Assembly: GCF_002571385.2 (NCBI RefSeq)
Contig: NW_019217786.1
Location: 75,961 to 139,960 of the forward strand
Length of the DNA stretch: 64,000 bases
DNA from: Stylophora pistillata
Lineage: Eukaryota
Direction of reading: 5' to 3'
How positions within the stretch are numbered: position 1 is the stretch's first letter; the number at the start of each line of letters is the position of its first letter. Below the pieces are notes generated by a model that worked only from the letters and a program-made list of their open reading frames with translations, was not told the origin of the DNA and ran no database searches. The position numbers were made by a program, and so were the translations under genes. Positions 15,301 to 41,300 of this stretch are shown here, piece after piece.

Positions 15301-15798
15301 ATCTAACAGACGCTTCACCTTCTACTGTCTCCAGATGTGTAAGTATATTTTTGTCTCAATTTTGCCTCTAGCTGTTGTGAGGAGTCAGTTTTAAATTCTT
15401 TAAACTACAGCTTCATTCTGTTAAAAAGAAGTTCTAAGTCGCCGCTTCCGTATCATTATTTGTGTGCTGTTAGCGTATATGATATATGTATAAGGGAAAT
15501 GAACGTGGTAGCTATAAAATGGTAGTGTAATGCCGGCTGGAATCGTAGTGTGAGATCACAATTGAGGTTGACTCACCAGGAAAAAGGATGTATGCTTGAT
15601 CATACGAGTATTAATGTTGATGCGATCACCATAAAAAAAGGATTGAAGCTGCGGTACCCATCATTTCCAATCACGATCTTCCTTAGAACACGTCTGATTA
15701 AGTCGTGTTGTTTAACTTTCAACGCCCTTCACTCAAATGAGCTTCCTTGAAGCAGCTCTTCACACAGTCATCACTGAACCGTGTCCTTGCTTACTCTG

Positions 15799-15856
<58 letters not shown>

Positions 15857-18800
15857 TTTATTTTCACTTTTCTTTGTGACCTCAGGGTATGGTGTACATG
15901 GATGAGACTGTACTGGGCTGGAGACCTTTGGCCGAAGCTTGGCTAGCAAACAGATCTCCCCAAGAAAGCCACGTATGTGTTCATGATCAACAAATGAAAA
16001 CAGAGCGTTTGTAAGATCGAGCGAACCTTGGAATTAGTGTAATTTGGGAATAATGGCGAAGAACTTTAAGCAATCCTAAAGCTAACACGTTGTGCCTTCC
16101 TCTCTCTTAGTGTTTACAAAGAGCATTCAACAAGACCGTTGATGTCATCTCGCAGTTTGTTCACTATGAAGCAAGGTAAGCTTTCGTTTAACCTTTTAAG
16201 TGGGTCAGCATCTATAACCCAGAGATAAGAGGAGAGAGGGGGAAGGGGTAGGGGTGGACTGGCTACTTACCAGGGAGGAGAAAGAATGATAATACCCGAC
16301 ACATGAATCTGTAATAGGACCGAACTGGAAACGAGGGACTCCAAACTTGAGGGGCCGGTATCTTGCCAAAATGTTTGTTTTTAACGATATCTCCCCAAGT
16401 CGCTCTGCTTCTTGGCACGTGATCAGAGTTCAACTGAGTTTGTTACGTTAATAACTGTACTCTTATTTTTGTTTCCTTTTTTAGACCATTCATGAAAGTT
16501 TGTGAGGTGGGGCTGTTTAACACGTGTCTCGCATTGTTAAAGGCTTTGATCGAGGTAAGTGTGACAGTTATGTACACTACTGTTTGTGTTCGTTTTTTCC
16601 ATTCAGCCAGAGTCATATAACGAAGATTTGAGTGTAACTTAATCGACTCGCCCTGCAGATTTATTGTAGTGAATGTCAAGAATGTCAAAAGTAATGCAAG
16701 TTTCTGTGTTTTTCGTTATGATCAGATGTTTCGATCTCACTTCATTTCAGGGAAACACTGACATTGGTGGCGAGCTTCATATTGACAGGTTGTACCTGTT
16801 CTCACTCATATGGTCATTTGGTGGACTTTTGGATGAAACAGACAGGAAGAAGTTCAGCGAACTGTTGCTGTCCCTGACAACGGCCTTGCCAGATTATGAT
16901 CAACAAATCTCCGTGTTTGATTATTATGTTGATGAATCTGGAGAGTGGGACCCGTGGCAGTCAAGGTGAGTTTCGTCGCGGTGATTTAGAGCAATTTTCA
17001 GTTGGATGTCGATATCAATACTTCATTGCATTGATTTTGCTTCATTATACTTTGTGATGGGTGTACAAAAACTCGTGCTACCCTCTCGAACAATTATTTT
17101 TGTAAATTTTAACCCAATTGTGAGCTACATACCCATTTTTTCGTCGCCAGAGGGCAAAGCAAATGTATTTACTCTTGCTTTTCTTTCGATAAAGAGTTCC
17201 AGAAGTAAGCTATTTCGATGCAGCAGATCTCCTTGGGGAGGTATTTGTGGACACAATTGACACAGTAAGTCTTCGTATCATAAAAATTAAGACATTCTTA
17301 ACTTAATTCATTTGATTGTAAGTTAACTTGCTTCTTAATTAACGTCATTATTCCTCTTCGATGAACAGACATCTTAGAATCCCTAATGCAATCCCAAAGT
17401 TGGAATGCATGAGCCAAATCAACAAAAGAAATGGACGACTTCCGCACAGAGGCTGTCATTCTTTAAGACCTGGTGTTTTTTTCTCCTTTAGATCCGTACA
17501 CGTCAGTTGATGGATTTGGCCTGCGCTTCTGGCAGAAACATTTTGCTGACCGGTCCTGCAGGATGTGGGAAAACATCCCTGATTGGCGACTTCCTCGACA
17601 AGCAAGGTGAGCGTCAAAAACAATCTATCATTACCAAATTTGGTAGTTCCCGCTTTGTTTGGCAGTGGATAACAAATGGATAAAAGAGTTACATTTTGAT
17701 TCGATTTTGTTTTCCAACGGTTTTTTCTATCCATTGCACTTTTCAGAGGATAAGAACCAAATTGTGAAACGCTACGTCTATTCAGGAACTTCGGGAGCTG
17801 CTTCATTACAACAGTTCATTGAACATAACATTTACCATAGGCAAGGTGAGTTGACCTCAGTTAGTGTTAGTATTCGAGTACGAAGTCCTTACGGCAACTT
17901 CAGGAGCCATGAAAATTAGCATTAATACATTCTCCTTATCTCCTTCGTCATTTAATGGGTGTCCTACCCATTTTTTTATCATAATTTGTTCCTTCTCCTC
18001 GTTTCTTTCCCATTTCTCCTTTCTCTGTTCACCGTACTCCTTCCCTTTAGAGACCCACGCAGGTTAGGCCGTTATCGTAGGGCGCCGTTTTAGGTTTTCC
18101 GGCCATTTTTCTCCCTACTCTGTATCATTTATTATTACACGACTCGGGCAGTCAGAGGGCCAATAACTAAAATCAACCAATCAAAATGCTCTATTGCCGG
18201 TCAATATTCTCTCAGTATTGGACCGGGCACTGTCCCGAATGGTCCCGAATGATACCGCACGTGTGTCCCTTTGAACTTCAGTCGTATAATAAATTTCTTA
18301 TTAACCAAGCTTGCTCGGGACCGTACTGAAAGAATATCGGCCCTCGGTCTTTTTTGAACGGACCTCGGGCCGATATTCTCCCAGTACGGCCCTCGCGCTT
18401 GGTTAATAAGATATATGTATTTTTTTCTTTCACGATTATTTCCTCTCTCATGTGCTGTTTCTCTCCCCTCTAAGATAGCTGCGCGACTGTGTTTTGGTTT
18501 TCAGAAGCGCAATGCCATCTGTTTCGTAAAAATTGTGCAACGGAGGTAAACAACTTTTTACAAAGAGCAGGAAAAGGCAATACAAAATCAATGTTCCATA
18601 AGTCCATAATTTGGGGACTTAGCTTTCCATTTTTTTATTTTCGACTTAGGGTTCGTGTATGGCGCTAAGAAAGGAAAAGTACTCAGCATGTTTATAGATG
18701 ATCTTAGCCTTCCTCAGCGGGATCAATATGGAACACAGGAAGTCAACGAAGTGAGTTAAACCTTCTATCTCTCTCTCTCCTCTTGCTCCGATCTTTGCGA

Positions 18801-21800
18801 CTGACGTGAACCAGGAGGTACCGGCGTGTGACATAAAAATTCTGCGGAATGTCGATTTTTTTGTGTTCGCTTACAAATTGTTGCGCTAGTGATAGATTAT
18901 ATTTCTGCAGAGAACTTATTTTTTGCGATTTTCTTTCTTAATAGGCTGACAGTTACAAAGAAAAAACGTTATATGTTCAAATTTTTAATAGTTCGAGAAG
19001 TATATGCGGAGCAGCTACATCTTGGATGCTTTTTATTTCTCGTGCAGATGTAAATTAAGGGATTCCATTTTGTTGCAGTTTATTTTGCCGGATTTTCTTT
19101 TCATTTGGATTTCTTTTGTAAGCGTGAAATTATTATTGCGGACAGAGGACTATCCAAAGAACCCGAGAACTTTCGATGCCACTCTGACCTGTCCTTTTTT
19201 TAATTAGCTGTTACGACAAGTACTCGACGAAAAAGTCCTGTTCAACACCAAGAAACCTTTTGACCGTCGTGTTTTAGAGGGAGTTGTTGTTACTGCAGCT
19301 ATGAACATGCAGTCAGAACTGGTGACCAGCCAGCAAATTCCTGAGAGACTTAAGGTGCGTATGATGATGATTTTACCGTCGGAAAGAAAATCTCAGGAAT
19401 AGGGAGAAAGGTTAATTTGGGAATATTAGTGTATTACTTCTTTTGCAAACCCTTTCTTTTCTTATCTTATCTCTAAATTAATCGTCATTCTTGAACCGTA
19501 GGCAGACTTATTTTATTCTAGTGATCTCTTATTTTCGTGTGTTAACGAACAGTAACTTGTCTTGCAGCGCCATTTTGCAGTTTTCCGATTACCAGCTCCG
19601 TCGGACGAGTCGCTCTTCACTATTGTTACCGCTATTTTAGAGGTGTGTGAAAATAGCCTTTGCTCTTTGTATCAACTTCGTCAAGAGCGTGGTAAAACAA
19701 AACTAAAGCTACTCTAGACTACTTTCAAGGCTCATCTGAAAACATTAATTTGTCAGTTTTTAATCTGCCAAGCAAATATGATTTTTCTTCCCTGTGGATT
19801 TCTTTTGGTGCGTTACCTTATTATAACGCGTACGTAACTCTCTTCGATTTTGTTGTACCTGTTTAGGCCAACATGGCTCAGAATCAAGGCATGGGTTTGC
19901 CACATGAGTTTCACGAGCAGATAGTGATGGCGTCGTGTATGCTGCTTAACAGTTTGCAGGGTGTACTGAGACCTTCTCCAACACCTGGAAGGTGTCATTA
20001 CCTGTTCAATCTCAGGGAAATAACCAGAGTGTTTCAGGTGCCGTAAATGCTCTGAAATTAATTGTAATTTAAACTAGACAAGTAGGGGTTGTTAGCTACT
20101 TGAGAAATGGATTCCACGTTGCCTCTGACCGGATATTGGAGAATTCTACGTCTAAACTTCAATGGCCTGAGCTTTTATTCAGACGTGGGCATTTCTGTTT
20201 TAAAAAGAATACGTTGAAATCGAGAGAAGCTTATGGGTAGGAGCGTAAATAGAAGTGCTATGGGATTTCCACGTGAGTAAAATTCCTCGCTTAGGTTTCG
20301 CTAATTCTAGATCTTCTTGAGATCTCCGAAAACGGCACTGATCGAAAAATAATTTTTAGATCATTTCGGAAGTAAGGCATTTGAGATCGTGTGTTTAGTT
20401 AGTCTCTTGATTCGACTCGCTTAAGTAAAAAGTTAAAATGGAAATTGAACAAACGTTGGTTGAAGATTTGCAGTTTGTGTATCGGAACATCGCAAAAGGA
20501 AAGTTCTTCATTAGTAATTTACTGGCAAGCAGGCACGCGATGAGAAAACCATTTACATTATCAAATTTGAGATGTCTTTGTTTAACTGCAAATTCTCATC
20601 AACAACCAACAAAGAAATGTATCGTCACTAGTTTGGAAAATTTGCTTTGAAATCCTGGGAGTGAAAGGGTAGAAGTAGGGTAGAAATGCAAGTAGACTTG
20701 CATTTTCTTTGTTGTAATTACTGGATGTTTTGATTTCAGGGGTTAAACAATTGTTCAGAGGAGATGCAGGCTGATGAGGAATACGTGGTATCCCTGTGGC
20801 AGCATGAACTAACAAGAGTGGTTAAGGACCGTATATGCCGATCAATAGATATTAAATGGTTCGAGAAAACCCTTAAAACAATTATTAAAGAGGTACAACT
20901 GCGAAAAAAAGTTGCTTTAATGAACCTAGTAGTTTGTCATAGTTTGTCATGTAAAGAACAGATCACCTAATTCTTTTTGTTTCGCTTCAGAACTTTCCAG
21001 AGCTTCCTGCCAATTCTCCTTCTCCTCTGTTTATTACTTTTCCTCTGGATGCTGGACTTTACGCTCAGCGCCCTGTGACCCAGGGACGCGTTGCACCGAA
21101 GGTTTGTTGTCGCGCCTTTAGAAAAGATTAAAAAGAAATGGAAAGAACGAAATTACAATACGTTTAGTACTATGAATTGAGCGCAGCAGTAGCCCTCTAG
21201 ACGAACCACACCAGGTAGAGAGGAATTTGAGACCTAAAGTGAGTCGTGGGTTAAAATTCACAAACCTCACTGCAGATCTCTTGATGCTCTTCCGAAAGAA
21301 CTATGGAGACAAAATAGGGAGACTTTTTTATGAATATCATTAAACATTTCGAAACGTTTTTGTTTCAATTGATAATATCAACACTTTCTTTTCTCGCCAT
21401 TTGCAATGTTATGGCCCAGTGAAAATGTTTGGCAAATAAACCTTAATTAAAGTAATGTTCAGCACCATTTTCCCGTGTGGATTTGGCGATAAATATTCGA
21501 CTTCTTATTGTGTTTGTTATTACAGCTCCTTCTTCAAGCCATAAATAACATTGAAGACGTGTCCCCTTGTTTGCAAAGCTATCTGAAGCGTTACAATGAC
21601 GAGTTTAGCGGGGAAGGACTGGATTTAATGATCTCATCTCATGTCATGTTTCATGTTGTTCGTCTGCACAGAATCTTAAGTTACAAGAACAGGTAAACAG
21701 CTGATGGACTGAATCATATCGAAATTTTTTACTTTGAATTATTTTGATAGTTCTGGTCGAGCGAGTTAAAAGCCACTGTATTTTGGACAGGGGAAGATGG

Positions 21801-24800
21801 GATGAAGAGATTGAGTCTGCCTTATTATTCGTTAAGCCTCTAAAGTTATTTATAGACTCATACCATTTATCTAATCTGTTAAGAATTACGGAGGTAATCT
21901 AGAAATAGAGAGCTTTAGGTCCTGGGAGGAGTTTAGCCACGAATAAGAGATTTGAGCACGCGCGGAATGCTAACTAATAGAAACCTCGCGCGGCTTCATT
22001 GTGATCTCTATGATCGGCACAGTTTGCTCACTTGTAATTTTCGGACGCAATCAAACTGACTGAAAAACTATAAAAGCTTTGGATACGTCGGGACGTTGGT
22101 TGTACCAAAACGCTCTACCTCCAATGTCCACGGCTGTTGCGTTTTCCTGCCAAACTAACTCATGGTTTACGCGCCAGTTTTGAAAAATCTCTAGCTCGTA
22201 TTCGTCCAAGTCCTATGAGGAATCTAATGTAAGGAGTATTTGGGGGTTTCAATCTCTGGGCACAATTCTCTCTCGATTTAAGTCTACGCGCGCCTCTCAT
22301 TTTTCTTTTTTTTCTTCCATTTATTCTTTATAACAGAGGGAATGCATTGCTGATTGGGTCGATAGGGACTCACCTCAACTCCCTTGCAGCCTTAGCACTG
22401 TACATGTTGGAATATCCCATTCACCCTGTGGACTGTACTTATCCAAACACGTTCCTTGATGGACTCAGATCTGCTGTGCGTCAAGCTGGCTGCGATGGAA
22501 AGACAACCACTGTCTTGTTTACTGTAAGTACAAAAGGGGACCTGAACTTCCAGAAGCACAATTTCACGTCGTTTCTGTATACCGAGTTTCAGAATAAAAT
22601 GGTTTTATAAAGATCTCAGTGGTTAAGGATCCTAAATGCTCGAATTGGAGCTGTTTTCTAAACGTTTGACCCCTAGGTGTGACTAACAGCTAATTTCTCC
22701 TTTCTCTATCACCCCTGGATCATACATTATGCCCACGAGAATGAAGGAAACGATCACTAACTAAAGAAGCTCTTGATTGTTCAACGAATTCTCCTTGTTA
22801 GCACCTTAGGAAACGTATAAGGAACAGTGTGAAGAATGTGCACTGTGATGTCAGGGTGTAAAGGGTCAATTAGGCATCCTGAAACTGTCTTAAAGAAGTA
22901 AGGGGTACAACAGTTATCTTTGATTTTCGACGTCGCTTTTTCGGGTGGAATCAAGATGTTAAGATAAATTTTACAGTCAGAGAATCCTTTTTATGAAGGC
23001 GTTTACCATTTAAATTTGAGATAACTCCCCTCAACGGTGGTGTTATTTTGACTTGAAAATCCTTTTGTTTTTTCATTCCAGGCACCAGATTTAAGGGATG
23101 ACATGTATTTGGACGCGTTAAACAGTTTGCTTATCAGTGGGGAGTATCCGCCGCTGTTCTCTGTGGATGAATTGGACAGCTTGCTGCAGGTAATGCACTT
23201 CACTTAAGATAAAGATGAACCTCCAAGGAACCTCTAAGGTTTTCCTCAAATATGTAGCCTTAGCCTTTTCCGTTTTCTTTGTTCCCATTATTATCCCTGT
23301 TCACTCTGTTGTTGTTGTTTTTTTTTTTCAACTATTTCTGTTATGTTTTATTGACAGGCTTTGATGCCAGCTATTAAGAAGAAATTCTCTAACTTTTTGG
23401 CGGATCCCATGAAATTTTTCCTCACTCGTGTCAAGGCTAATCTTCACATTATCCTTTGTCTTCCACCCACTCATAAGCTGCTTAGAACTGGCCAGAGGTA
23501 TGATAAAAATAACTCGAATTAAGCCAAGTGATTACAGGATTTTCCTAACTTGCCAATTTCCACTTTTAAGAACTAGCCAGTCGGAGTTTCCTGTTAATAA
23601 ATGGATGACTACTAGGTTCATTGCATTGTGGATGGTCGGTTTTTTTTAAAACTGGCAGATCTGTTCCCAGGCGTAGCGGTGAGATAGTTTTCACACTCTT
23701 GTAAGGAATACCTGTGAAGTGTGGTGGAGTTTTGAGTGCCTGATAATTCAGACGATGGGACAAAATAATTTACAATCTTTCTGTTGTTGAAACATTGGGG
23801 AAGAGAACACTCACAGGCGATGTACTCTCGCTTTCCTTTCAAACCGCTAAAGCTTGCTTAGAACCTCTCCTTCAAGCCGTGCCAGGCCTCATTGCTGATG
23901 CAGTCCGGCCAAAGTCCCCCGAAAAGTGTTGTGATGCGCATTTGATCATATCCACATGTTAATTTGCGCGATATAAATATTAAATTATTACTATTATTAC
24001 AGCGCACCCAAGCCTAGTCCTAACTTTGGAAAAGAATTTCGTTTGACAATTATTAACCCTTTACGCCTTAACATCAGTATCCAAGTTCTCCATACCGTTC
24101 CTCATTCATTTCTAAGGGTACTCACAACGAGAATTAGTCAAACAATCAAGAGCTTCTTGATTTCGAGATTATTTCTTGTGTTCTCGTCACCGTAATGTTC
24201 GATTCAGGGGTGATTCTGTTGGGAGAAATAAGGTGCTGATCACACTCAGGGGTGAAAGGGTTCAAGGACAATCATATCGAGGCTGGCCATGATCTGTGCG
24301 ATGCATTTGTCCTTTTGTTCATAGTTGTTACCCTGGTATCCTTTATGGCTGTCAGATGGATTTTGTTAAGGACTGGCCTCAGTACGCATTGGAAGGAGAA
24401 GCCAGCCATTATCTTGAGAAATACAAAGTGCTTGACGAAATCTCTGAACAAACTAGGTACGTGCGGCGTCGTCTAGACAAAACTAGGTACGTGCTGCGTC
24501 GTCTAACAAAGCTTCTTCGCAGTGTTTTGAGTCGTTTTCATGTGACAGCGAAGATTTCTTAAAGCTGCGAAAAACTTCGATAAAAGTAAAAGGAAAATAC
24601 AAAAATCAAAAGTGAGTGAGAAGATTGGACTCAAATATGACAAATTTTATCAAAATTACAAAAGACCAATTTTAAAATGTTAGGTGGATTTCAATTTATG
24701 CAAAACGTTGAGCTGTGTTTGTTGTACGCCCTCTTATGCCGCCGAGCGAGCCAGTGAGGTATTTTCTTGTTAAAACGTTCAAACTGCATTTGTAAATGTT

Positions 24801-27800
24801 TTTCCGTGATAAAAATCTATCCTTTTTACAAGGAACAACATTGTCTCAAAACTCAGTGTCATTCTCTGGGAACACAAAGTAACTTGGTGCCACTTGCTCA
24901 CTGCATGTTTGCTGTGTTTAAGAGGCATATGATAGTCCCTATAAGAAATTTTGAAAGAATTGGTTGGTCACCTTTATCATCCGTTTGCTACGATTCTTTA
25001 ATTCCGATTGCATCACGCCGGACGCTGAGCCAGATGTAAAGAGTACCTCGTTGCGTTGCGTCAGTATAAACCATACGTGCCTTTATCATTGAAACACTGT
25101 GTAGAAGTTTCACTGTATTCTCATATACTTTTTACAGAGACAAAGTGGTTGCGTCGCTATCAACCATTCACGGTCACGTGTTAAGAGAGTGCCACCAGAT
25201 CCCTTGGGCCGGGGACGACCATCTGTTGACTAGAGCCGAGTCTCCCCCTGAAGAACCCAGTGCAAGTGAACCGCGCTCGCTTTCGATCCTTCTAGAGAAA
25301 ATTAATTTGAAGCATCAACATAACGGAGTAGCCAACATAACCAGGGACGTGTTTGTCGGGCCCACCACGTACATACAGTTCATGCATTGCTTTAGACACA
25401 TCTTTAGGGACAAGAGAAAAGAGGCAAACGAACGAGTTGATCGACTTACGTAAGTTGATGCCAACGTTTGAACGATTTTCTAGTTTAGTCTATGTAGTAT
25501 ATGCATGAAAGAGGGATTTTTTTTGTTACTGCATATAAAAATTCCGCTCGTCTCAGTAGGAACCTCGTGATAAGGTTGATTCGCTCCAAAGCTGCGATCT
25601 CCTGCCTTGTGGAGCTTTTCCTAGCCTTGACTCAGCCCGGAATTCTCGATACAAAGTTCGCCGTGCACTAACCACGAGCCCTCCTCGTACTCAACGAAGA
25701 TCTTGCTGAGCAAAAAATTTTCTCAAACCCCCTTTGCTTTGCGTCCGTGAGTCTTTATCCACTATAAATGACTAACAAATCGCGATGTTAAGAGAGTAGG
25801 CTGAAATATTTTGATCAAGATAATGATTATGATCTTGCGTGCTCCTTGTTCAGGTTAACGCTCTTCTTATTTCGAGTTACAGTTTTTTGTACCAAGAGAA
25901 GGCTGTCCAGTGTATTTGTCGCACAACCTCTTACCATATTTTTACAACTTTTCTGTCATTTCCTAAGATTTTTTAAAACATAGTTACGATTTCTGAAACT
26001 AAAAAAAATGAGGATACGACTTGCCCAAAGTTGCTGTGGTGGAATAGCTAAGGCTTTGTTTTTCAGGATTGTATTTCCCTCAGTTTAGGAGTTGTTGTTG
26101 TTCGCAACCGCTAAAACAAGTTGTCTCGTCCGGTTTAACGGGAACTACTAATTGTCATCTTTGATTTTGTTCCGTTAAGAAACTTGTTTTAAATAAAGTA
26201 TTTCTTTTTCTCTGCCTGTTCGAGACGTATCTAGGACATTGACGTGTTCATTCACTCATTCTATTCTTTTACTTACGTTCTCTTCCTCTATTTCCGTCAG
26301 CCGCGCGCTAGAGACCCTTGAGCAAACTCGCAAAGATTCTGTGGTGATCAAGGATGTGATTGCAGAAACCAAAAAACAATTGTCTGTGGCTACGGTCAAA
26401 TCAGATCAGTTACTGGAAGCTCTCACTGCCAAAGCTACAGCGCTGGAGAAACTTAAAGCTAAACTTGGCGTCGGGAGTGCCACGTTGAGTGCATTTGTCG
26501 CACTTATTGATAGCGAAATTGAAGAGGATGACTTAGCTCTATTGCAGGTTAATTGATCTTACTGTTTTAAGCCTGTGAATGGGTTTTCTTTTCGAGAATG
26601 GGGCGAAGGGGATAGTGGAAAGAAAATGAGCTAGAATAGTGTAGGGTGTGGCAGGTGCTCTCCTTCTCCCGACTTTCTTCCTCGCCGGCCGCTTTACTCA
26701 GAGCCCATTCCTCCTCGGCCCTTTCAACCGAAGCCTGTTCACGGGCTAAATGTTTCTTACTCTTGTGCTGGTTTTGTTGTTAGCTCTAAATAAGAGGGAT
26801 GGCATTTTTGAGTTATAGGAAATCTCCATCTTTTAACAGTTAAGTAAAAGAAAGTCGACGCTAAGCCAGTTACTTTTGTTGTCTCTATCTTTCCTTCTTT
26901 GTCTATTTAGGTTTGTTTATGCCAGTTTGTCATTTAGTCAGTCCGTTCGTTTGTCTATTTGTCAGTCTGTTTGTTTGTCAGTTGGTCAGTCTGTTCGTTT
27001 GTCAATTAGTCAGTCTTTTCGATTGTCAGTTACTCTGGCTTTTCGTTGGTCAATTGGTCTGTCTTCTCGTTCGTCAATTTGTCAGTCTGTCTGTTCAATC
27101 ATTAATTGGAGCGGTAGTTCGTACATTTGATTCTTCCTTTGTTCCTTCGTTTTAAACTTTTTAGCCAAAACTTTGATTGTTAGCCTGTAATTTGAAATGT
27201 AGTTTAAGGCTTCTTTCTCACTTCGATGATTTCCTTTTCTGCCTTGTGTCTCCATCCGATTGTGCGTAGCAGGATGATGAGGCGGACGAGTTAGATGAAG
27301 AGTTTGAGAAACTGAAGAAAACCAACATAAAGAGCCGTCGATTAAAGGTACTGGAGGAGATTTCTCTCGCAGAGAAGGAAGTGGAGGACACTAAAGTAGC
27401 TATGAAGAAGGCTGAGGAGCAGGTTGGTTCAATAGAATTCAAACTGCTAGTTATTCCGGCCTCCTGTTGACTCTCAATTTTTTCATCATCATCATCTTTA
27501 TATGCCTTATTTTAACAATAAAAAATATTTAATGACAGTGAGTTAGAAGGCGGGGAGACCCAAGAAGCCACCAGGCTTATGGGAGAGCCACCTCACTTAC
27601 AATAATAAATTAAGTAAAGAAAAAGTGCTGCGAATGTGCGGCTTGGCCAATTCAGTGATTATTTAAGTAAAAACTCTTGCAATTTCGTTTTAAAGCTGAG
27701 AAAGTTTGACGAACGAGTGACTGAAATAGGGAGAGAGTTCCAAATTTTAGGACCTTGGTTGAGAATTGTAAATTGCTTGACATTTGTACGGCACAAATGC

Positions 27801-30800
27801 GTTCGATAATTACTGGCTGTTCTGGTACCATAGTTGTGAATTTGGCTATTCCTTACAAAAAGATCGAGAAGCAATGGGGGCAATAAGTTATTTTTGAAAT
27901 AAAACATAAATTTGGCGATTTCAAACGTATTTTGTTTAGAATTTGCCCATTGTGATTGCATATTCCAGGAAAAAGGAGGTGAAAATGGGCAAAGAAATTC
28001 ACTGCAGGGTTTTGGGTCGCTTTTTGATTGACTGTCGTTAATCCCTGGAGGAGAGATTCACACAGTATATCTCTCCATTTAGGAGTGTTAATGGCTACCG
28101 GGAATTTTCTGAGAGAGCTATAATCTCAGTCACCACCGGGATAAGCGAGGAGCCCTATAACTTGCTGGGTTTGCAATGCATGATCTAACCTCAACTATGT
28201 TGTATGCAGGTTAAGCACTGGATGCATAAGGTTGACAGATCTTTGTGCGAGCGCCTTAGAGCTTTCCAGAGCCCCCCACCTATGGCCGGCATGGTTATGG
28301 TGATGGTAATGGTTTTACTGGGTAGACCAGAGTTTGCTCCGGGCATTGGAGGAGCGGGATCCAGCGTCCCACCTCCGACAAGGCACGATCGGAGAGGAGA
28401 TCATAGTTCATCTCTTGGGACTGGCTCAGATGAAGCGTCTCGCGCGAGCTCCGCGACACACAAGAAACGGAGCATCAAGGAACAACCTCAGAAAGTAGGG
28501 CCACAGGCTGCACTGTTGGGTAGGAAATCATTTCATTCCTAAATGTGCGTCTTACTTGCTAAGCTTTTTATCTTAATGGTATCTTTTTCAAACTTGTTGC
28601 CATTAAATTACCCAGGAGAAACACTCAAAATATTGTGGACGTCTCAGAGATGTTGTGCTGTCTCTCTTTCTTCCCTTTCTTTTTTTCTTCCTTTCATCGA
28701 TATTTCTCTTTCTCGATCATAGGAGTCAACGCCGAAGGTAAAATTGACCGCTCAACATGGAAAGCTATCCAGCAAATAATGAATGACTCGCAGAAGTTTG
28801 TCGAATCTCTACATCACATTTCCAGGAAAGAGGGACTACACGACGACATCCTCAAGGGTGTTCAGTCTTTTTTGGCTGCATCCAGCGGCGGAGATGTCAC
28901 TGACAGTGACCTGCGCACTGCTGCTCCAGGTGCAAGTGCGAGCTCTTACCAGCCTTCCCCCGGTCGAGCCTCGTTTACCCCAGGTAAATGTTAGAAAGAG
29001 TTAGTGAGTCTATAGCCAACAAACGGGCTCTCCTATAAGGTTGGCCTAAACTTGATGGATAAACGGTTAAGATAATGGCCGGCAAAGGTGAAGCAGAGTG
29101 CAGAACACATACCATTTCCTTTGACCACATGTCAACAAATCTTTCTATCCAAGACTGTTTTTAGACCGAGGATTTCGCTGAAAGAGAGTTAAAGAAAGTC
29201 CTCCATTCCTGGACTCGGCAGCTTTATGATCAGCGCGCTGAACTAATTAATGAAAAAGTGCGGATATGGTTCCTTGCCGGGTCACTTTGTTCTTTGTTCT
29301 TTATAATAATAATAATAATGATCGTTTATTCAACCTTTTTGCAGCATACACTGAATTACAAGGCGGGTCGTTAATTACAAATACTTCTACGTTACACCTA
29401 AATATAACTATTATAGACATCAATTAAATGTAAATATTGAATACTATGTAAATAATAGATATTATGAGTATTAAGACGAATCGTAAATCGGTATTTTAAA
29501 CGTGGTTCTGGTATTTGATGGTGCAAACATTTCCGAATCTCTTAGATCTTGGGGAGGCAGGTACAGACACAGTTTCTCCTGTCCCAAGGGCTATGGTCTT
29601 GTGAATGCACAACGCGGCACTAACTTTCGTAGTAGGTCGGAAGAAGAGTGACTTCGCTTGAGGAATGTTATGCTCGCATCCTCCCTCCTCTGGCGCAGAA
29701 AAATTAAGCCTAATTTCTTAAGCGCGTTCTCATAACTCAAAGACGGAAAGATAATTTTTAGTGCCCTCTTTTGTACCGATTCAATGTGATCACTTAAGCA
29801 CTGTGTGAGGCCAGCCCATGCGAGGCTCGCATACTCTAAAACAGATCTGATGATGCTAGAATAGACAAGAATAAGCTGCCTATCAGTTAATCCGCACTTC
29901 TTAAGAGCACATATTACATATAACCGCTTGTTCCCTTTCCTTGCAATAATTTATGAAAGACATGTTCGTTCCATGTTCTTTGTTCTTTTGCTAATTTCTT
30001 CACTCTTCGAGTGCCTCGCTCCACCAAGAAGTTTAAGTGAATGCTCGGAAACTTTGATGGAAACATGAATTGCAGCGAGTGGGGGTAACTAGCGATACAT
30101 AAGCATCCCGGCCTATCACAGATGAATGAGTAGTTGATGATAACTCATCAATGGTCCCAAACTTTGTTGCTTTTGTTTTTGTTTTTGTTTCTGTTTTTTT
30201 TTGTTTTTGTTTTTTTTTTTTTCAAACAGAAAAAAAGCCTCAAGGAATCACCATCACAGCAGCCAAATATTCATCAGAGGATGCTGCGGTTCTCGTAGAG
30301 TATACTGTTGCTTTAGTGGAGTACACCAGCATGTATAATCCTTACAAGAAGGCTTGCGATACCTTGGAAGAGTTGGTGAGGGAACGCGAAGAGGACGAGA
30401 GACAAGCCGAGATCGATAAAAAAGCAGAAGACGCAGAAAAGGAAAAGGTTAGAAAAAGTTTTGAAAATCATTTCACCAAACAGTAACATCAGAGGAAACC
30501 CGTCAGAATTGTAAAATTCTTGTAAAATTAATGTTCTGTGGTCAGTCTGATGCAGCGCTTCTGACCTTTCGTAATTCGTAGGCGGAATCTCGTTGGATTG
30601 GGTTCAAATCACCTTGGTAAATTCAATATATTGGCGGTCTGACAGGATAATTGTTATAGGCTTGATTGGCAGTAGAGGTCGACTACTTGACATAAGGACG
30701 TAAGTCTATCTTTTGCTTCTGGGAGAAGAATCATTTAGCAGCACTGCTCCACGGAATACCTTTCTTTTTCTTCGCAAATTTTCATCGCAACATGGCCATA

Positions 30801-31875
30801 GATTGTTCATTTTGTTATTTAAAGGAAACTGCGCCTGAGCCAGAAGTTGAGCTGACCGAAGCTGATTTGCCAGGTCTCCAAGAAACTGTGACAAAGTTGC
30901 AGAAAGAGTATGATGAAGCAGTGGTGGTGAAACATGACCTGGGCAATGATGTCAGGTCATGTAGTGAGAGGCTGAAGGCCGCTACCGACTTACTGCATAG
31001 GTAAAGATGTCCCTTGAACTGTTTGTCCGTCTGTCTGTCTATCCATCTGTATGTCTTTCTCGGCTTGTCTGTGCGCATTTCTGTCTTTTTAACTGTCTCT
31101 CTATGTCTTTACCTATCTGTCTGTCTGTCTGTCGGTCTGTCTTTGTTTGTCTCTCTGCGTATCTGTCTGTGTCTGTCCCTCTGTCATTTTATATCGGTCT
31201 GCTTATCTGTCTGTACATCTGTCTGTCTGCTTGTCTCTCTGTCCGTTTGTCTGTCCGCTGATCTGTCTGTCAATCATCCAGTCTGCTAATCTGTCTGTAC
31301 ATCTGTCTGTCTGCTTGTCTCTCTGTCCGTTTGTCTATCCGCTGATCTGTCTGTGAATCATCCGGTCTGCTTGTCTGTCTGTTTATCTGTGTCTGTCTCT
31401 CTTTGTATGATAATGTCATAGAGGGATATATCGGCAATGGAGTTATTTTTGTCGTTCGTGGGTGGTCGACTCGGGTATGCAGTTGTTTCGTTCTGCAATC
31501 ACCATCCGATAGCATTGTCACCTGATTATGATCTATTTCCACTCATTGTGATGAATTGTTACAAGGAAATCAGAGTGGATCCTGGCTGAAATGAGTTCAG
31601 ACCGTAGGACTGAATCTTAACCACAAGTGCATCATCAGTCAGTATTCTAGTTCAACAACAGCTTGCTAATACTGTATGAAATTACCAAATCAGAACTATT
31701 ATTCCTCGTACCCAACTGGAGCTCTGAGAATCTAAATGATACATTGATTCATTCCTGGTAGAGGTTGTTGAGTATTCACAAGAAGTACGAGATATAACAG
31801 AATTCGATCAAGTTGTATTTGCAGCTGAAAACGAAAAGAATAACTTTTCATCCTTTTCTTGTTTCATTGCTAGTG

Positions 31876-31911
<36 letters not shown>

Positions 31912-32305
31912 GTAATTATCAATCTCATCTAAATTTTTGATGATTTTTTCGCGTAGCCTGAAATACATGGAGCGCGAGTGGAAAGCATATGTTGACGAGT
32001 ATACTTCATCTGAAATTCTGCTGTCTAACTGTATCGCTGGAGCAGCTTTTCTAACTTACTGTGGAGCAATGGGAGTCGACAGGAGGTAATGAAATCAGTC
32101 GATCTTGAGCTCACAGACTCGAGGAATCGCCTATGGCGATTTACTGAACTGAAGTGGACTTTAAAATAGACTAATTGTAATTATTTGCGCGACAACCCTC
32201 GGCCTCCTTTAACCCTCCAACCCCTGAGAGTGACTACCATTTAATTTCTCCTTACAATATCATCCCTGAATGGTAATAATAATAGTAATAATAATATAAC
32301 AATTA

Positions 32306-32349
<44 letters not shown>

Positions 32350-35300
32350 TTGGCTTTGCAATGACTGAACAGTGTGGAGAATATGCATACTGAACAGTGT
32401 GGAGAATATGCATACTGAACAGTGTGGAGAATATGCATACTGAACAGTGTGGAGAATATGCAGACTGAACAGTGTGGAGAATATGCATACTTAACAGTGT
32501 GGAGAATATGCATACTGAACAGTATGGAGAATATGCATACTCTAGTTAGGCTGTAAACAGTTTAAAGTGACCAGAGTAATTGAAGATAGTTATGAGAGTA
32601 GATACAAATGAATTTAACTCGATGGATTTTTTTCATACCCTCAGTGACCTGCGTGCAATATATTTATCAATAACCCACTGTTTTGTTTTCCTTCTCAGGA
32701 AACGGATGGGAAAGTTTTTTATGCAAGTTTGCAGGGATAATGGTTTGAAAGTCCAGTATCATCATCTCTTTGATCGTCATACCCTTCCAGAGTTCCTTAA
32801 GGGAAAGGTTTGTTTAGTTCATTGTGTATGAAATGTATCAGTAGCGAGGAGTGTTTTATTTAACAGCCTCGATTTACTTAATAGAGAGTTTTAGATCCCC
32901 GTTTGGTGTGTTAACCGCAATCGTGAAACTTAGGTTAGCAGTTTGAAGTTAGGAGTTAGACGTTTCGAGATTTTCAGCTTTTTAGATCGACGTCGGCTTT
33001 CACCCGAGAAAAATCTACATATGCGCCGCCATCTTGAATTCCACAAGAATGGAGGTCCTTCGATTCAAACACAAAATGTGCTTAAAAGTTTGGTTTTCTA
33101 ACGTCCCAAACGGACTGGTTAAAAAGAAAAGACTTCATCTCACATGTATTTACAGAACTTTTAAACAGAAAGAAGAAAAGCGCTGCAGGAGTTAACCTCC
33201 CTGAAACTACCTCGCTCAAAGTTCAAACTTGAACCCTAAACGTCGAACGCGACCGCTGGAGTCTGGTCACGTGACTTTTAGCGGTTTGCGGCAACACGTA
33301 TTCAGAAACAAACGCGGATCTAAAACTCTCTTATATAGATTTTTACGGCGGATAAAGCCGTAGTAAAGTGTGAATTGAAGATTTTCTGTGATACAACTCA
33401 ACAGATTGTTCTGAAGACATGGGAGAACATGCAACTTCCAACAGACCCCATTTCCATGGATACTGTGTGTATCTTCTCTCAGGAGGAGTGTTCGGACTCG
33501 TGGGCTTTGCTGTGTGATCCCCAGAGAATCGCTATTACTTGGGTATTGACCATGTTAGGGCAATCGACACTCGTCAAATACAAGGTGACCAATCTTGACC
33601 GGAATAATAAAAACAATGTTTTATGTTACTTATCATAACACGTGGAAATAAAGGGTGAAGCCTCTTTTGTGCAAGAAATTTTGAAGGGGTACATACGTTT
33701 TTCTCCGAGATCGTGCTTGGATATGACAAAACTTAACAGATTTGGTTGCTATTTCTGAATCTGTTAATTATTCTTATGCAAAACTCTTGCAAGATTATGA
33801 GGCCTCTAAAAGTTTGCTATTGGCTCAGTTGTTTTATCAAATTTGACGACTCACGTGAAAAACCCTCTCTTTACCCTCTTTTTTTTTTTTTTTTAATTTG
33901 TTGTCTTTTAGTTTGAATTGTTTTTGATTATTAAGAAACGTATTCAAAATAGCTTTGTGTTCCTTACTTTCTTGTTTGTTACGTATTTCAAAGTCACACA
34001 ACAGAGCCCCTGATGCTCCTGATTAAGGGTTCAGATTCACAGAAGTAATTTAACAAGCATCGCGCATAACGGTTTTCTATGTGTATTTCGACAGGAACTT
34101 CGTGGTCATCTGGAGACATGTTTAATGGAGGGCACCACTCTTGTGGTGACGGATGTCGATGTGAATGAGTTAGAGTATGATAGTAGATTCTACTTCATTC
34201 TCCGAAGTCGCTACAGGTTTCTTACATCAACTACTCCATTCAAACTCATGGTAAGATCTTACTAAGGAATGATAGCAATCGAAGATTTTGTGTTGTAGCA
34301 TGATGAATTGGGTGAAACAAGCCAACTGACAAGAATTCCGTTATCCTGTGGTAATTTGAAAGATGTTAGGTTGCTGATAAAGACGGGTACTTCTAGCGAC
34401 TAATAGTTTCGTCGTTTTAAGATACATCTCAACTTTAATGACAGACGCGTGTTTGTGGCAATGGAGAAAAATATTCCCATAAGACTCCTCGTTGCACCTG
34501 TTTAAAGAAGAATGAGTCATAAAGGCTGTTTTATGTGCTGGTGACTTATTAGTTTGTTTTGAGAGAGAGAGATTAACAAGTCATAGACAAGACTAAGAAG
34601 TAGAAATTGAGATCACCATAAAAACTTCAGCTGGTGACAAGACCGGGATTTAAACTCGGAGTGACCTACGTGACGTTCGAAACTTCAGACCTCTCAGGCA
34701 ATGCTGCCCTCGCGTAATGCTGTTCCCATTAATCGTGATATTCGTACAATTCTCTTTTAGGTTGGTGAACATGAAATTGAGTGCCAACCCGGTTTCAGGT
34801 AAGTTATGAAACATTTTACGCGTCAAATAGAATGACATGATCTGCTAACCATGCAGATTTGACAAGTAATTATGGCTTGCAACTTACGTTCGATAAATTT
34901 AGACGTGATTGTTTGAGTGATCAGTAGAGTTCAGCAAGAATATTCTCCCTGCTGTTATTATGTCGTGGACATAACTGGCTGGCCAGACTATAGGTGTAAT
35001 TTTGAGGGGAACTCATCGTACCAATAATTCCGTTGAATAATTCATTAACATTGAAGAAAACTGTTGAAAGAAAAGCCTTGTTTTTTTATGAAATAACTTG
35101 TCTAGTTGGTTAGTTCCATCCAGTACGCGCCTATTAAACAGATTAGTCTTTATCCTAGAGGTAACTTAGGTCCGCCTTCGGAATTTCCATACATATCACA
35201 TCTTATCTCCGCATTAGGTTGGTATTGGTTACGACGTTTTCAAGTAAAGCTGTCCCATCAAGCATAGCGGCTTATGTGAATGTAGTTGAATTTAGTCAGT

Positions 35301-38300
35301 CACGTGACGGCTTAGAGGAGATGTTCTTGGATAGATTCCTTAGACTTGAAAAACCAAGGATGCAGGAGACGAGGACACAAGTAGTGGATGTAAGGAGAAC
35401 AATGACAACAGTTCAAACTGCGTTGTATAAAGAGCTGAATCGTCAGACTATGCTAATAAGATTGCACCGCACTGTACCGTCCCGATTAGTTGATACTAAT
35501 TAACAATATTCACCAAAGTGGAGGTGAATATCGGTGGGTAATTACCAAACCGCGAAGCAGAAGACCTGCATTATGCGGTCGATGTGTGGTGATCTAATGT
35601 GGAAGTGATTGCATTGTGAGACTAATGATAGGTCTGCGTTGTTACACGAAGTGACTGATTACAAAATGTAACTCATGAATGGATTTCGCCCGCGAGAGGT
35701 TTTGGTGAGCGGTCTAGTCGTGAGTCGCTATTTACCAGGTTTCTGTGTGGAGTTGAAGATAACACTGATGTAATTTTTTTCCTTTTCAATTTGGCCGTTG
35801 CCTTTTTTAACAGGAAATGGTTACTCTGATGGAAGGTTTACGTGAAGCAGAAGAGAACATGCTAGAATGTTTAGGGAGTGGACATCGCCTTCTTCACAAC
35901 TTAGCAGCCACCAAGAAACTTGCCTCTATAAAGAAACAGCACGAGGAAATCGTTGAAGGGTTGGTATAATTTATTTCACTCGCGCGATCGAAATGGCATT
36001 TCTCCTTCTTGTTCCGTCTTGTTTTCTCTGATAATTGTCTTCCTGTTTAAATAGTATTCTCCAGTTGATTTTTTTTCATCTCTAATCACCTCTTTGCTTG
36101 AAAATATAAAGATGTCATAAGGAGAAATGATTTTTTAGTCACCCCTTAGGGCGAGGAGCAAAGGGTTCCGTCTGAAGTCTGTAAAGAAACACCATTTGAG
36201 TGTTTTCAACTTGTTACAAACTTGTTACTTGAAACCACAAAACCACACCAAAGAATAAAACTGTTCTGATTGTTTTGTGTCAAAAATTTAGGAAAATATT
36301 CATGTTCGCATATTAACAAGTGACTCTCCAACACCTCTCAACCTGTCGGTGTTTTAAAATTTGTATATGTTACCAGCCAACCTTTCTTTTATTGTCTGAA
36401 GCCAAACACGGTCTCGAGGCATTGAAAACTCTCTTCTACAATCACGTGAGGGATATCGACCAATTGCTCGTCGAGCAGCGGTGATGTTCGATGTCGCTAG
36501 GATTATGGCCGAGATCAATACTGCATACCAGACTTCTCTCGCTCAGTTTCTGGTGGTTTTTGATGCTGCTATAAAACACTCCGAAAGGTAAACCCGTGTG
36601 AACTTACTTATGATGGCTTGAAGCCCAAACTCACGTGTAGAAGCGGCTAAGGCTTACTGTATTTCGCGCAAGGGTGTAAATGGGATAGAATCAAATGACC
36701 AACACTTTATACTCTAACATCAGTTTTCATATTCCCCATACTCTTCTCTATACATTTCATTAGGTGCTTACGGTCCGAGATTCGTTAGTTGGTGATCTTT
36801 TCCTTTATTCGTTTGACCTTAATGAATGACTCAGGGGTGATATTGAAAGGAGAAATTAGATGCTGGTCACTCTTATGGTTTAATGGGCTAAGGACAAAGT
36901 AGGAGATGGCGAAGGGATTCTCTAAACTGGAATTTTATTTTTTCCATAAAAATTTTAACTTACTCAAATTGGTTCATACTTACAGAAAGTAGTTTCCGTA
37001 ATGATTTTCAAACCTTTTTGTTTTTACTCGATTGAATGTCTGACGTATTTTCGGCTTGCCGAGAAGAACGTTTCATTAACGATCATTGCCTTCATTTTAG
37101 TATGTGCTACTGTCAATCGCACATCCTTTTCTTCAAGTCGGTTTCCGTTTTTGATTTTTGGAGACGAGTTAAAAGGCCAGCGAGGGTTAAAAAATGGCAG
37201 CTGCATTTGTTGTGTGTCCTTTGTCCTCATCCTTCGCGCAGATCCGCCATTTTCCGCTTTCTTTCTTTCTCGGCCGTTGACCTTGAACGAGACCACAAGC
37301 TACCTTTCTACTAGAAATGGGGGAAAAAAACTAGCACGTGTGAATTGACAAAAAACTTCCAAGCCACTTATGGTATTCTCCAAGAGAATTTTTTACAGAC
37401 TGTTTAAGAATTTACTCTTTTCTTTCTCTTTCAGAACTGCTGTAAAGGCAGTGGTGGAGAGGTTAACTCAAAGTGCGTTCTACACGGCAGCTCGAGCTCT
37501 GTTTGAACGAGACAGGCCTCTTTTCTCCTTACTTTGTGCCATTGAGGTAAACTTCTGTCAAGTCAGGCTTGCTTAATTATTAGTTCTTGGTGGTGGCACC
37601 GTTAATTCTTCAATTTTTGCCCGGATAGTGGTAGAGCCTGTCACAGTGTTGGTCATTTTAGTGTGGAGAGATGTCTCTGAATGTGAAAATGAAAAAATTG
37701 TAACGAGTTGAAAATCATAAAATCTTTTGATTGAGACACCTTTTAGGGCGAGGAGACTTAAAGAAAAGAAATTACTTCGAGGTTGAAGGACGATTTATTA
37801 TTTAATGTAAACCACGTGAGATGAGATGAGACGGGCTTTGTTGGTTGGTGCATTAGCTCATAAACTGTATCATAAGGTTCTCCCTTATTACTACCCGAGT
37901 CATTGCGTTGAGTGAAACAACTTTACCATTACATTATCTCTCCCTCGCCCAGGAGTTTAAAAGGGTAGCAGTGACTTGTAGCAAACGAAGCGACGGATAG
38001 GAGAGAGGCCCAGTCTTAAGTATATCTTTAGGCTCATAGGGTTAATTCAGTGATAGCCAGTTTCAATAATTATTGACTGAAGGAGAAACTGGCTGTTTAT
38101 ATCAACGTCTTCTTCGTTGTGTTCACTTGTAGGTTGAAGACTCAAGTGGTCGTGTAGGCCCTGGGGACCGTGAGTTCTTGATTCACCCATCATTCGGTGC
38201 GGCCGTGAAGACCGCGCTTCAACCCAGTGCCTTGTCTGAAACTGCTTCTCGCACTCTTTCTAAAAAGCCTTTTGATTGGTTATTGGATGAGCAGTATTCC

Positions 38301-41300
38301 TATCTGCAGGTGAGTGCCTGGCGGTTTCAGCGCCTCTTGAGGTCAAGAGGCCTTTTCTCAAAGCGAGTGGTGAAAATAAGAGAGAGCTGTGCATTCCCGT
38401 TCTCTTAATTTTATCAGCGACTTAAATATATGAGAGAAGTGGCTACTTGAACAATGAATAAACATCTCATTCTTAACAAGGCCGAGGAGGTAAGGTGGGG
38501 GAACTACCTTGGGGTAAAATTCAGGTTACGAAAATGCCGGAGACAACAGCAATCACATGCTGTGCTCGTGATTTTTCATGGTTTATTTTCCAGCCTCATC
38601 TGTCTTCTTCAAGATAAACTGAGTTGTTGATTTAGAACATATTCCTCCTTTTCAGCTTTTAGCTACCCATTTCGAGTGGTTTCAGGACGCTTTCGACAAG
38701 ATGACAAAAGATGGGCGTGAAACACAATGGAGGCAAATTACGGAACATGAGAAACCTGAGCTGGTTGCCCTGCCAGACGGACTGGACGATAAGTAAGTTT
38801 GTAACCCTAAAGGATTACAGGCTCGCTAATAAACGAGTTTCAAAGTTTATATTGCATCCACTTCAACAGTTAACAAACAAATTTGTTTTTACTCTGTGAA
38901 GAATATGCGAACTTGTTGCGGTTGCGTCTCATATATTTCGAAGCCTGAATGATGCGAGTTCTGGCCATGTTACCCTGTTGTAGGCCTGCTATGATTATGG
39001 TTGCCTCTGTGTTGGAAATGGTGTCAGTACAACTTTCAGCTTCAAACATCTTCTTTTCTTTGATGTCACTGTCATATTTGCCTTTTTTCTGTCTGTGTTT
39101 GTTTGTTTGTCTGTTTGATAATTTACTTTTATTAATTGAGTCGATAATGTTATGAAATAGGTTGTTGTTCATCGTGGTAGAGTTCATAATGTTAAGTGAG
39201 TTGATAATGTAACTTGGCCATCGTAAAGATTTTCTAAAGTTGATGTTTCGAGCGATAGCCCTTCGTCAGAGTAAATGAATGCTTTAAAAACTCTTAACTG
39301 TGGCCAGTTTACATTATCAACTCAACTGATAACAGCAAACTATCTTGTTATACCCCCCTCACACGCAGATTTCTTTTGAAACTTACACCCTTTATCTTTT
39401 TCTGTTTGGTTTTGATTTTGTTTTGTTTTCGTTTTTGTTTTTTTTTTTGTTTCGTTTTATATGTTTTTCGATTTGCTTGTTTTTTTTGTTTGTTGTTGTT
39501 GTTGTTTTTTTTTTTCCCCTACTTGTGTCTTTCATTTTATATTCTGTTTCTGTTTTTTTTTCTTGGACGTCTGCACGTGATTGTTTCAAGTATTTCTTTA
39601 CGGTTTTCAGGTTCACGCTGATTCAGAGGTTGATGGTGATCCGTTCCCTGCGTGGAGATCGTTTGATGCCAGCTGCGACGTGTTTTATTACGTCGGTGTT
39701 GGGAAAGAAGTAAGTGTCCAACCTACTAAAGTTTCAAGTTTCCTCACATTTCGTCTCTATGTGCTCTAATAGACAATTTTTTTTTTTTTTCATAATTAAA
39801 AATTTAATTTTACAAGAGATTGTGAAAGCCGCTTCGGTAAGAAAAAAACTGAAAAGCATCACGAGGACTTCCCTTCCCCTCACGTGTTAAGCTACTTTTC
39901 GCTTCACTGGTTTGGATTGAGTTTCCTGAGAAAGTATCGAAGCGCTCAAACCGTAGAGGGAATACTTGAATGATTGAATCTTGCGTTTCAGTCGTGGTCA
40001 CATGGTCACATGGTCACAACGTCTCATCTTGGCTCGTTTCCTATCATTTTGGCAACCTCCGGTCTTCGATCCTCCTCAGAGGGAACTTTTAAGGCCGGTT
40101 ATTTAAACAAAGTTTGGCCGTTGTTTAGCAAAACTGTATTCTAAACTATCTTGAATTTAGCTGAATCTTATATCTGAACATTCATTTTTGTGAACTGTGT
40201 CAAAAGAGCCGAAAGTTAGAAGTAGAAGGACATTTATTTAATGAAAACAACCCTCCTATAGAGAATACGTTGGGCCCGTTGCTTGCGTAAAACCGCGGTT
40301 TGAGTAGACCTCGTGGAAATAACCGGCCCATAGTCTCTTTCGGGACGCAAAGGGGCCTATTTTCTGAACACTGATTCGTTGTCGAGCCTCGGTCAATAAA
40401 GTATTCGACTGGTGTTTATTTCTCGTTCAGCTCCTAAAATCTTGAAGTTTGAATCGTAGTTTCATAAGGGACATGAGCTTATTGCCTTGACCATGAATTT
40501 GCACATCTGAACTGATTCATGCATAATGATTTGTTGAACTTGTTGACGATTTTTGACAGTGCTAAGAAGGTGGAAGAGGTGTGTCTATCGTTTTTTTAAT
40601 GCCGTATTCCCGACAGGTACACCACAGAAATCCCGCTGGACTTACCGTTTGCGTATCGTCAGAGCGAGAGTCGCACACCCATTGTGCTGCTGTATACCCA
40701 AGAAGCCAATATGGTGGAAAAGTTAGTTATTGAAGGAGCCCAAAGAAAACAGGTTTGCAAGGCGTTTAATAGTTGGTGTTTAAAATCTAACGATTTCTTT
40801 GTTTGCTTGTTTGTTTGTTTTTCAAATTTCCTTTGTTAATACTAGAATGGTCGGGTCTCATTGATAATAACGGTGAGACTAGGGATTTCTCGCTTTCAAT
40901 TTATGTTTCTCGGCAGGTGGAATTGCATGTTCTTGCTCTAGCAAATGTTGGAATTGGCGAAGAACGTGCTGCAAGAAAGACGATACACAAGGCCATAGTA
41001 CAGGTGGGTAAAACTAACAGTGAAACTTGTTAACATTTGCCTCAGAGTAAGGTAGAGGTGCCTCATCCCTTTTGCGCAAGTTCTTACAGTGATGTATTGA
41101 TATTTAGTGTGCATGCTCGATGAGAATTTGCTCTTGCAAACCACATGCAGTAACCTTCCCTCAACTTGCGTAAGAATTTCGAATCGTCACGTCTTCTTTA
41201 GGTTTAAGACTCTAACGAGTGCCTGGGAGGTTTGAAGAGCAACAAAATATTTTTAGGTGAAGTTTCTAGTTGTATGATTGGGTGATTCAGGGGTGATATT

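Follow-up and report, generated by a model that had tools for sequence, protein, structure and literature searches.

A coral dynein heavy chain with two spliced-in loops in its microtubule-binding domain, a likely member of the divergent DNAHX subfamily

Does a dynein heavy chain of the coral Stylophora pistillata carry two long, disordered insertions inside the MTBD (its microtubule-binding domain), and what kind of dynein would such a chain be? The question is raised by a window of 64,000 nucleotides (contig NW_019217786.1, positions 75,961 to 139,960 of the forward strand, NCBI RefSeq assembly GCF_002571385.2), within which all positions below are counted. A first-pass annotation, made from the letters of the sequence, took the gene for an axonemal dynein with two unusual loops and offered three uses for them, namely additional contacts with tubulin tails, a block on binding, or switches controlled by phosphorylation. 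We address here the structure of the gene and its transcripts, the family to which it belongs, and the function that its loops may serve.

The gene is a multi-exon gene on the plus strand, with dynein heavy-chain Pfam domains following one another across exons from DHC_N2 to Dynein_C, and with single-exon matches to DHC_N2, AAA_6, AAA_8, AAA_9, AAA_lid_11 and Dynein_C. Its 5' part lies upstream, as the window begins near residue 1404 of 5243. The exons 28210-28519, 28723-28983 and 30230-30447 encode both inserts (Table 1). Splicing was assessed from the RNA contigs of 4 of 20 runs covering the stretch, from 3 studies; runs X3 and X10 are polyA RNA on record, and X1 and X2 are RNA by guess. The GT..AG joints 27422>28210, 28519>28723 and 30447>30825 are present in all four runs, and a single X1 contig of 13,735 nt spans all five exons, including the joint 28983>30230. 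The spliced contigs of every run keep both inserts in frame. The joined frame of the stalk region is open for 602 codons, and the encoded 602 residues are 100% identical to Stylophora pistillata RefSeq models of 5243-5279 aa, which bear the names 'dynein gamma chain-like' or 'DNAH5'. Over the whole contig stretch, 4946 of 4962 aligned residues match the RefSeq model. The two insertions thus lie inside the MTBD where the annotation had placed them, on the plus strand and as part of the spliced message.

These contigs also bear on a trivial origin of the loops, in which they would be a product of intron read-through or of overlooked internal splicing, or the gene would be a pseudogene. Two in-frame cryptic GT donors do exist, at 28322, the use of which would remove 66 aa from insert 1, and at 28930 (18 aa from insert 2), and a minority of contigs read through donor 28983. 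However, the joined contigs of all four runs retain both loops in an open frame, and orthologs keep the loops as protein, so that an artefact or a decaying gene is largely refuted and is left with almost no probability. Internal splicing that takes the inserts out, a caveat raised in the first-pass annotation, is not among the RNA-contig joints of the 4 runs, nor is use of either cryptic donor seen in them. Because contigs lose rare variants and in-frame cryptic donors exist, minor insert-skipping forms may nevertheless occur.

Several features of the locus accompany this gene structure. Intron 28984-30229, which splits insert 2, shows low-depth contig coverage in 4/4 runs, and in 3 runs a listed contig crosses donor 28983 into unique intron sequence; introns 28520-28722 and 30448-30824 differ from it in having no such read-through. 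Translation past 28983 would hit a stop three codons on (28992), and the intron is possibly a retained or detained one. It also holds an unclassified dispersed repeat of ~675 bp (29303-29977), which matches the genome at 31 further places with 83-94% identity. High-copy intronic repeats lie at 17615-18936, where contig depth reaches ~45,000, and at 27500-27931 (~1,900), with many loose ends. A tandem CAG acceptor occurs at 27270-27272, where RefSeq isoform X3 and relatives have one Gln fewer. Five single-base differences among the RNA contigs in the insert exons, four missense and one silent, look like alleles. Upstream of the window, the exon for residues 1022-1138 has two matches at 100% (-6493..-6143 and -3556..-3206 in window coordinates), which reflect either a duplication of the exon in tandem or an artefact of assembly. 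An intronless rhodopsin-family GPCR follows downstream of the dynein gene on the minus strand (50382-51428; 7tm_1, E=3.8e-33), and an Rfam search of 26000-33000 returned 0 matches.

Table 1. Positions of the coral dynein gene and of the motor-domain and stalk features discussed in the text
Feature	Position in window	Strand	Basis or remark
Dynein heavy chain gene (probable DNAHX ortholog)	266..48555	+	Pfam matches on single exons, exon map, RNA joints
AAA1 Walker A, intact (GPTGTGKT)	10379..10408	+	Thr retained; sea urchins Val
AAA1 Walker B, intact (DE)	10848..10868	+	Alignment
AAA1 sensor-I loop, degenerate	11509..11532	+	Canonical TMNPGY replaced by TICSNGQ, shorter by one residue
AAA1 sensor-II, Arg to Ser	12016..12039	+	Alignment
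AAA4 small-domain (AAA4S) insert, at DNAHX pre-sensor-II insert site	25193..25363	+	In 5/5 orthologs, 0/6 canonical rows
Stalk CC1 insert, acidic, ~38 aa, two exons	26470..27305	+	Alignment
MTBD helices H1-H2	28228..28323	+	Alignment; helical in ortholog model
Insert 1, pre-H3, in place of flap, 76 aa	28324..28754 (coded 28324-28519 + 28723-28754)	+	RNA joints, alignment, pLDDT<50 in ortholog model
MTBD helices H3-H5	28755..28874	+	Alignment; weak PF12777 match, E=0.018
Insert 2, after H5, 42 aa	28875..30246 (coded 28875-28983 + 30230-30246)	+	RNA joints, alignment, ortholog model
MTBD H6 and start of CC2, reads AAKYSSEDAAVL	30247..30336	+	Tyr and Glu where cytoplasmic dyneins carry R-x-x-K
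Stalk CC2 insert, acidic, ~25-30 aa, two exons	30391..30857	+	Alignment

The size of the loops sets the coral chain apart from canonical dyneins. Insert 1, put at about 75 residues, has 76 and does not end at ...IKEQ, as it continues across the 28519/28723 junction; insert 2, put at about 40 residues, has 42. The span from PP to the Trp of H3 is 95 aa in the coral, compared with 36-37 in DNAH5/8/7/12 and 22-48 over 29 canonical rows, and the H5-H6 span is 60 aa, compared with 22 in 28/29 canonical rows and 39 in P0018. This bears out the view that canonical dyneins are free of such inserts. The excess over DNAH5/8 amounts to ~59 residues before H3 and ~38 between H5 and H6, with 77 and 60 residues standing in the coral where canonical DNAH5/8 have a flap of 18-19 aa and an H5-H6 span of 22 aa. 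The exceptional row, P0018 (eukprot g1010.t1), is an OAD-gamma-type chain that does not belong to the DNAHX clade and has shorter extensions at both sites (spans of 48 and 39 aa), which suggests that both MTBD loop sites accept insertions more generally.

A structural view was obtained from an AlphaFold2 model of a 423-aa fragment of the Nematostella ortholog, which is 66% identical and was modelled from a 39-row alignment; its insert 1 is shorter than that of the coral, and its gene model is possibly mis-predicted at the 3' end. The MTBD core of the model has a pLDDT above 90, and both insert-site stretches fall below 50, in keeping with the disorder proposed for the loops. In a fold search, solved dynein stalks and MTBDs fill the top seven rows, and the model matches the OAD-gamma MTBD 6l4p_B over 134/138 residues (Z 14.2, 2.6 A). 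The model keeps the MTBD fold and coiled segments, though the PF12777 match is weak or absent. Because the confident core matches dynein MTBDs and the insert sites are of low confidence, the prediction is of an intact fold from which the loops protrude. Searching PDB sequences with the stalk fragment from Nematostella returned no dynein and three weak, unrelated matches; this stalk is too divergent for that search.

Which dynein carries such loops? A divergent animal subfamily named DNAHX, exemplified by the sea-urchin protein XP_041462850 of 5272 aa, has been described in a preprint (Chai et al. 2025, PMC11785096), and we regard it as highly probable that the coral gene is a DNAHX ortholog and that its loops are that family's insertions at the pre-H3 and H5 sites. 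A quick IQ-TREE analysis (LG+G4, 29 rows, 1136 columns from AAA5 to the C-terminus, MTBD inserts left out) placed the coral row and 10 others on one side of a branch with an SH-aLRT of 100, grouped with DNAH5/8 and on long branches. The partners of the coral in this clade are sea-urchin, amphioxus, fish, caecilian and sponge proteins. Proteins of S. purpuratus and Diadema and a fragment of L. pictus serve as stand-ins for the named DNAHX protein XP_041462850, and the Lytechinus pictus fragment falls into the same cluster as the urchin clade members. Both urchin rows in the clade have a Walker-A Val and a Lys 172 residues further on, and one of the two, S. purpuratus, has a Thr at +103. These spacings are those of V2221/T2324/K2393 in the preprint (PMC11785096). 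It is with these sea-urchin proteins, which bear the published diagnostic residues, that the coral gene groups.

The orthologs found come from stony and soft corals, Nematostella, two sea-urchin genera, amphioxus, reedfish, bichir, a caecilian, a sponge, a flatworm and an argonaut, together with unnamed fragments. The complete ones are 5240-5437 aa long, with a full Diadema model of 5303 aa. In a BLAST search with the tail, the top four matches among 14 canonical proteins were all OAD-gamma-type. The profile PF12777 is not listed for 5 orthologs, and is listed for 38 other matches; in the coral genome, the 21 PF12777 matches do not include this locus, and canonical stalks are encoded on 12 further contigs, of which one is DNAH5/8-like. 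Caecilians, monogenean flatworms and argonauts fertilise internally. A proposed tie of DNAHX to external fertilisation is weakened, because the family includes members from all three groups (P0050, P0054 and P0126, respectively).

Within this family, the loops vary more than their surroundings do. The pre-H3 span measures 51-121 aa and the H5-H6 span 41-72 aa in 24/25 family rows, the exception being Argonauta P0126 with much shorter loops (33/31). Identity to non-cnidarian orthologs is 12-21% in the coral inserts, versus 35-70% in the flanking helices. The substitution DAAVLVEYT in the last helix is present as the annotation described it. In H6, position -8 is Y/H/F in 25/25 family rows, versus K/R in 20/29 canonical ones, and position -5 is Glu in 22/25. 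The mean charge of H6 is -0.5 in the family versus +1.0 in canonical dyneins, and H3 and H6 are both less basic. The Arg of H1 and the Trp of H3 are retained, and the Lys/Arg of H6 stands one position earlier in 24/25 family rows; axonemal dyneins are themselves variable at H6. In Dictyostelium dynein, R3469 and K3472 of H6 contact alpha-tubulin (PMC4298687). Judged by the R-x-x-K spacing, the two altered family positions would be equivalent to these residues.

The rest of the motor domain departs from the canonical plan as well. The AAA4S, CC1 and CC2 inserts are common to the family and absent from 6/6 canonical rows, and the coral AAA4S insert can be aligned to those of urchin orthologs. 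The Arg of sensor II is missing in 10/10 family rows and present in 6/6 canonical rows; coral AAA1 has neither the NPGY of sensor I nor the sensor-II Arg that canonical DNAH5/8 have. The P-loop of AAA4 has no Lys in 7/8 family rows, and in the sponge it is shifted. What had been taken for an ordinary axonemal dynein with odd loops is instead a member of a divergent subfamily, with inserts in AAA4S and the stalk and a degenerate AAA1 site. The coral chain may all the same have a less dead AAA1 than the urchins, because its Walker A (with Thr), its Walker B (DE) and the arginine finger of AAA2 are intact. Further inserts of low-complexity appearance lie at 6816-7211, 9873-9990, 12040-12600 and 45814-46116, in the linker, on either side of AAA1, and in the C-terminal domain. 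The post-sensor-II insert of the coral protein is common to the family.

Taking these features together, we hold with good confidence that the coral protein is a DNAHX ortholog with spliced-in loops, whose MTBD is predicted still to fold and is likely to be without strong, motor-coupled microtubule binding. A non-motile chain with a weakly binding or non-binding, uncoupled tip is most likely, because AAA1 and AAA4 are altered, H6 has lost charge, the loops occupy the sites that they do, and canonical stalks are available elsewhere in the genome. Mechanistically, the CC1 and CC2 inserts would break the registry link between the ring and the MTBD, and an H6 without its usual positive charge would bind microtubules more weakly. 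The loops would project from the flap and H5, the surfaces with which chains of the parent DNAH5/8 class engage the adjacent protofilament and LC1, and they would be tolerated in, or help to disable, an MTBD uncoupled from its motor. We consider this non-motile, weak-binding mechanism probable. As for the loops themselves, the likeliest role is a tolerated or steric one that does not depend on their sequence. Of the uses first proposed for them, a block on binding agrees with the published reading of DNAHX, in which both the block and the non-motility are themselves predicted, not measured, in the preprint text (PMC11785096). Co-folding of the coral MTBD (P0216 3660-3935) with Pocillopora LC1 (P0244) gave a score of 0.00 in two runs that left alignments unused, a result that speaks neither for nor against an interaction.

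A gain of contact is the opposite use, in which insert 1 would be an enlarged flap gripping tubulin tails or the next protofilament, and the chain a tethering or braking dynein. The position is suitable, as the flap contacts the neighbouring protofilament in DNAH7 (PMC6629372), and insert 1 has 12 K/R versus 8 D/E, with short basic clusters in many family loops. The net charge, however, is merely +4 in insert 1 and 0 in insert 2, neither length nor sequence is conserved, and the reduced basicity of H3 and H6 runs the other way, which makes the proposal improbable. Still less probable are loops that act as phosphorylation switches to tune binding. Ser and Thr make up 14/76 residues of insert 1 and 11/42 of insert 2, with one PKA-like KKRS and two S/T-P as candidate sites, and S-P motifs turn up repeatedly in the cnidarian, urchin and amphioxus versions of insert 2; but Ser richness is typical of disordered loops, and none of the sites holds its position across the family. 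Phosphosites of axonemal heavy chains have been placed in N-terminal regions, AAA5 loops and the buttress (10.1101/2025.03.10.642390). Both ideas draw on composition and find little support, because the length and the sequence of the loops vary freely.

The preferred reading of an uncoupled, non-motile chain has to accommodate one further observation, newly noted here. Among six family members, conservation of the MTBD core helices exceeds that of AAA1 and AAA5 in 15/15 pairs, in a comparison of non-independent pairs where the core is helices only and the AAA sets include loops. Identities are 33-74% in the core, 25-52% in AAA1 and 14-48% in the inserts, and the core does not consistently exceed AAA3. 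In canonical pairs the order is reversed in 3/3, with AAA1 at 75-82% and the core at 55-65%. As the core exceeds AAA1 in every family pair, its conservation fits poorly with a simply decaying domain, and the domain may therefore still have a job. One such job would be that of a repurposed tip, where selection retains the core as a module for static binding, the loops act as flexible spacers, and a chain that is itself non-motile has a functional tip; the target of this module could be the doublet surface, the stalk of a partner heavy chain, or its own AAA ring when folded back. Family-specific motifs conserved from sponge to amphibian, in H3 (D at the DSQKF position) and H6 (IT..A[KR][YH][AS]SE), and the confidently predicted fold of the core speak for such selection, in addition to the identities. 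Against it stand the helices-only measure and the shared members of the pairs, and the conservation of a buried core may merely reflect folding. We therefore treat a repurposed tip as a tentative and rather unlikely alternative. More doubtful again is its extended form, that the DNAHX MTBD (taking DNAHX as the class 12 discussed below) became a static docking module whose loops replaced the flap and H5 surfaces, and that corals, with a slow ATPase, can still switch the tip. The conservation of the core speaks against dismissing the domain outright.

Compared with known systems, the coral gene is best placed by both its likenesses and its differences. DNHD1 (class 11) and the oomycete class-14 dyneins are likewise divergent and rich in insertions, and class 14 has extended MTBD loops; by their published descriptions and outside our tree, DNHD1 is set apart by inserts at other sites and by the lack of Walker B, and class 14 by its restriction to oomycetes. 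DNAH5/DNAH8 (outer-arm gamma, class 3) is the best canonical match among PDB sequences, with 6l4p_B as the match by fold. The coral differs from it in its ~25% identity, in a 76-aa loop for the flap and 38 extra H5-H6 residues, and in the lack of the sensor-II Arg and the AAA4 P-loop Lys. The flap and H5-H6 changes fall on the two elements by which the OAD-gamma chain of this class binds LC1, the flap and H5 (PMC10205576).

Kollmar's class 12 is described as holozoan, with a tail resembling that of class 3 and a stalk termed 'extremely unusual', without typical binding site or coiled coil, and as present in S. purpuratus (Kollmar 2016, PMC5100056). The coral chain resembles it in a tail nearest to class 3 (DNAH5/8). 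For the stalk the comparison points both ways, with a PF12777 match that is weak or absent but coiled-coil segments and an MTBD core that are kept in the ortholog model. DNAHX is probably class 12, the two being equated from descriptions, not sequences. Kollmar's account predicted a class-12/13 pair (PMC5100056), and sea-urchin DNAHX is reported to pair with a second heavy chain, in part as an autoinhibited, heterodimeric phi particle (PMC11785096). If DNAHX is class 12, class 13 would be a candidate for the second chain of dynein-X.

DNAHX itself is the closest known system. In the preprint, its inserts are pre-H3 and H5 insertions of variable length together with CC1/CC2 and AAA4S inserts, its AAA1 motifs are non-canonical and vary within the family, its stalk is folded back, the sea-urchin protein was seen by cryo-EM in the pre-powerstroke state only, with ATP in AAA1, and a role as packaging partner in flagellar assembly is hypothesised (PMC11785096). 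The two MTBD inserts as such have thus already been described for the family. The words 'coral', 'cnidaria' and 'anemone' are absent from the main text of that source, of which Fig. 2c or the supplements may list cnidarians; among the open-access papers from 2016 onwards that a search listed, the name DNAHX was found only there, and no publication on a coral DNAHX was found. The Stylophora gene adds to the family a cnidarian member with an RNA-confirmed structure. It is like sea-urchin DNAHX in its length (~5,240 versus 5,272 aa), in its nearest canonical class, DNAH5/8, in its pre-H3 and H5, CC1/CC2 and AAA4S inserts, and in its degenerate sensors I and II. It is unlike it in a Walker-A Thr where the urchins have Val, in a sensor-II Ser instead of Lys, and in a pre-H3 loop that is among the longest of the family, with a span of 95 aa versus 74-80 in urchins.
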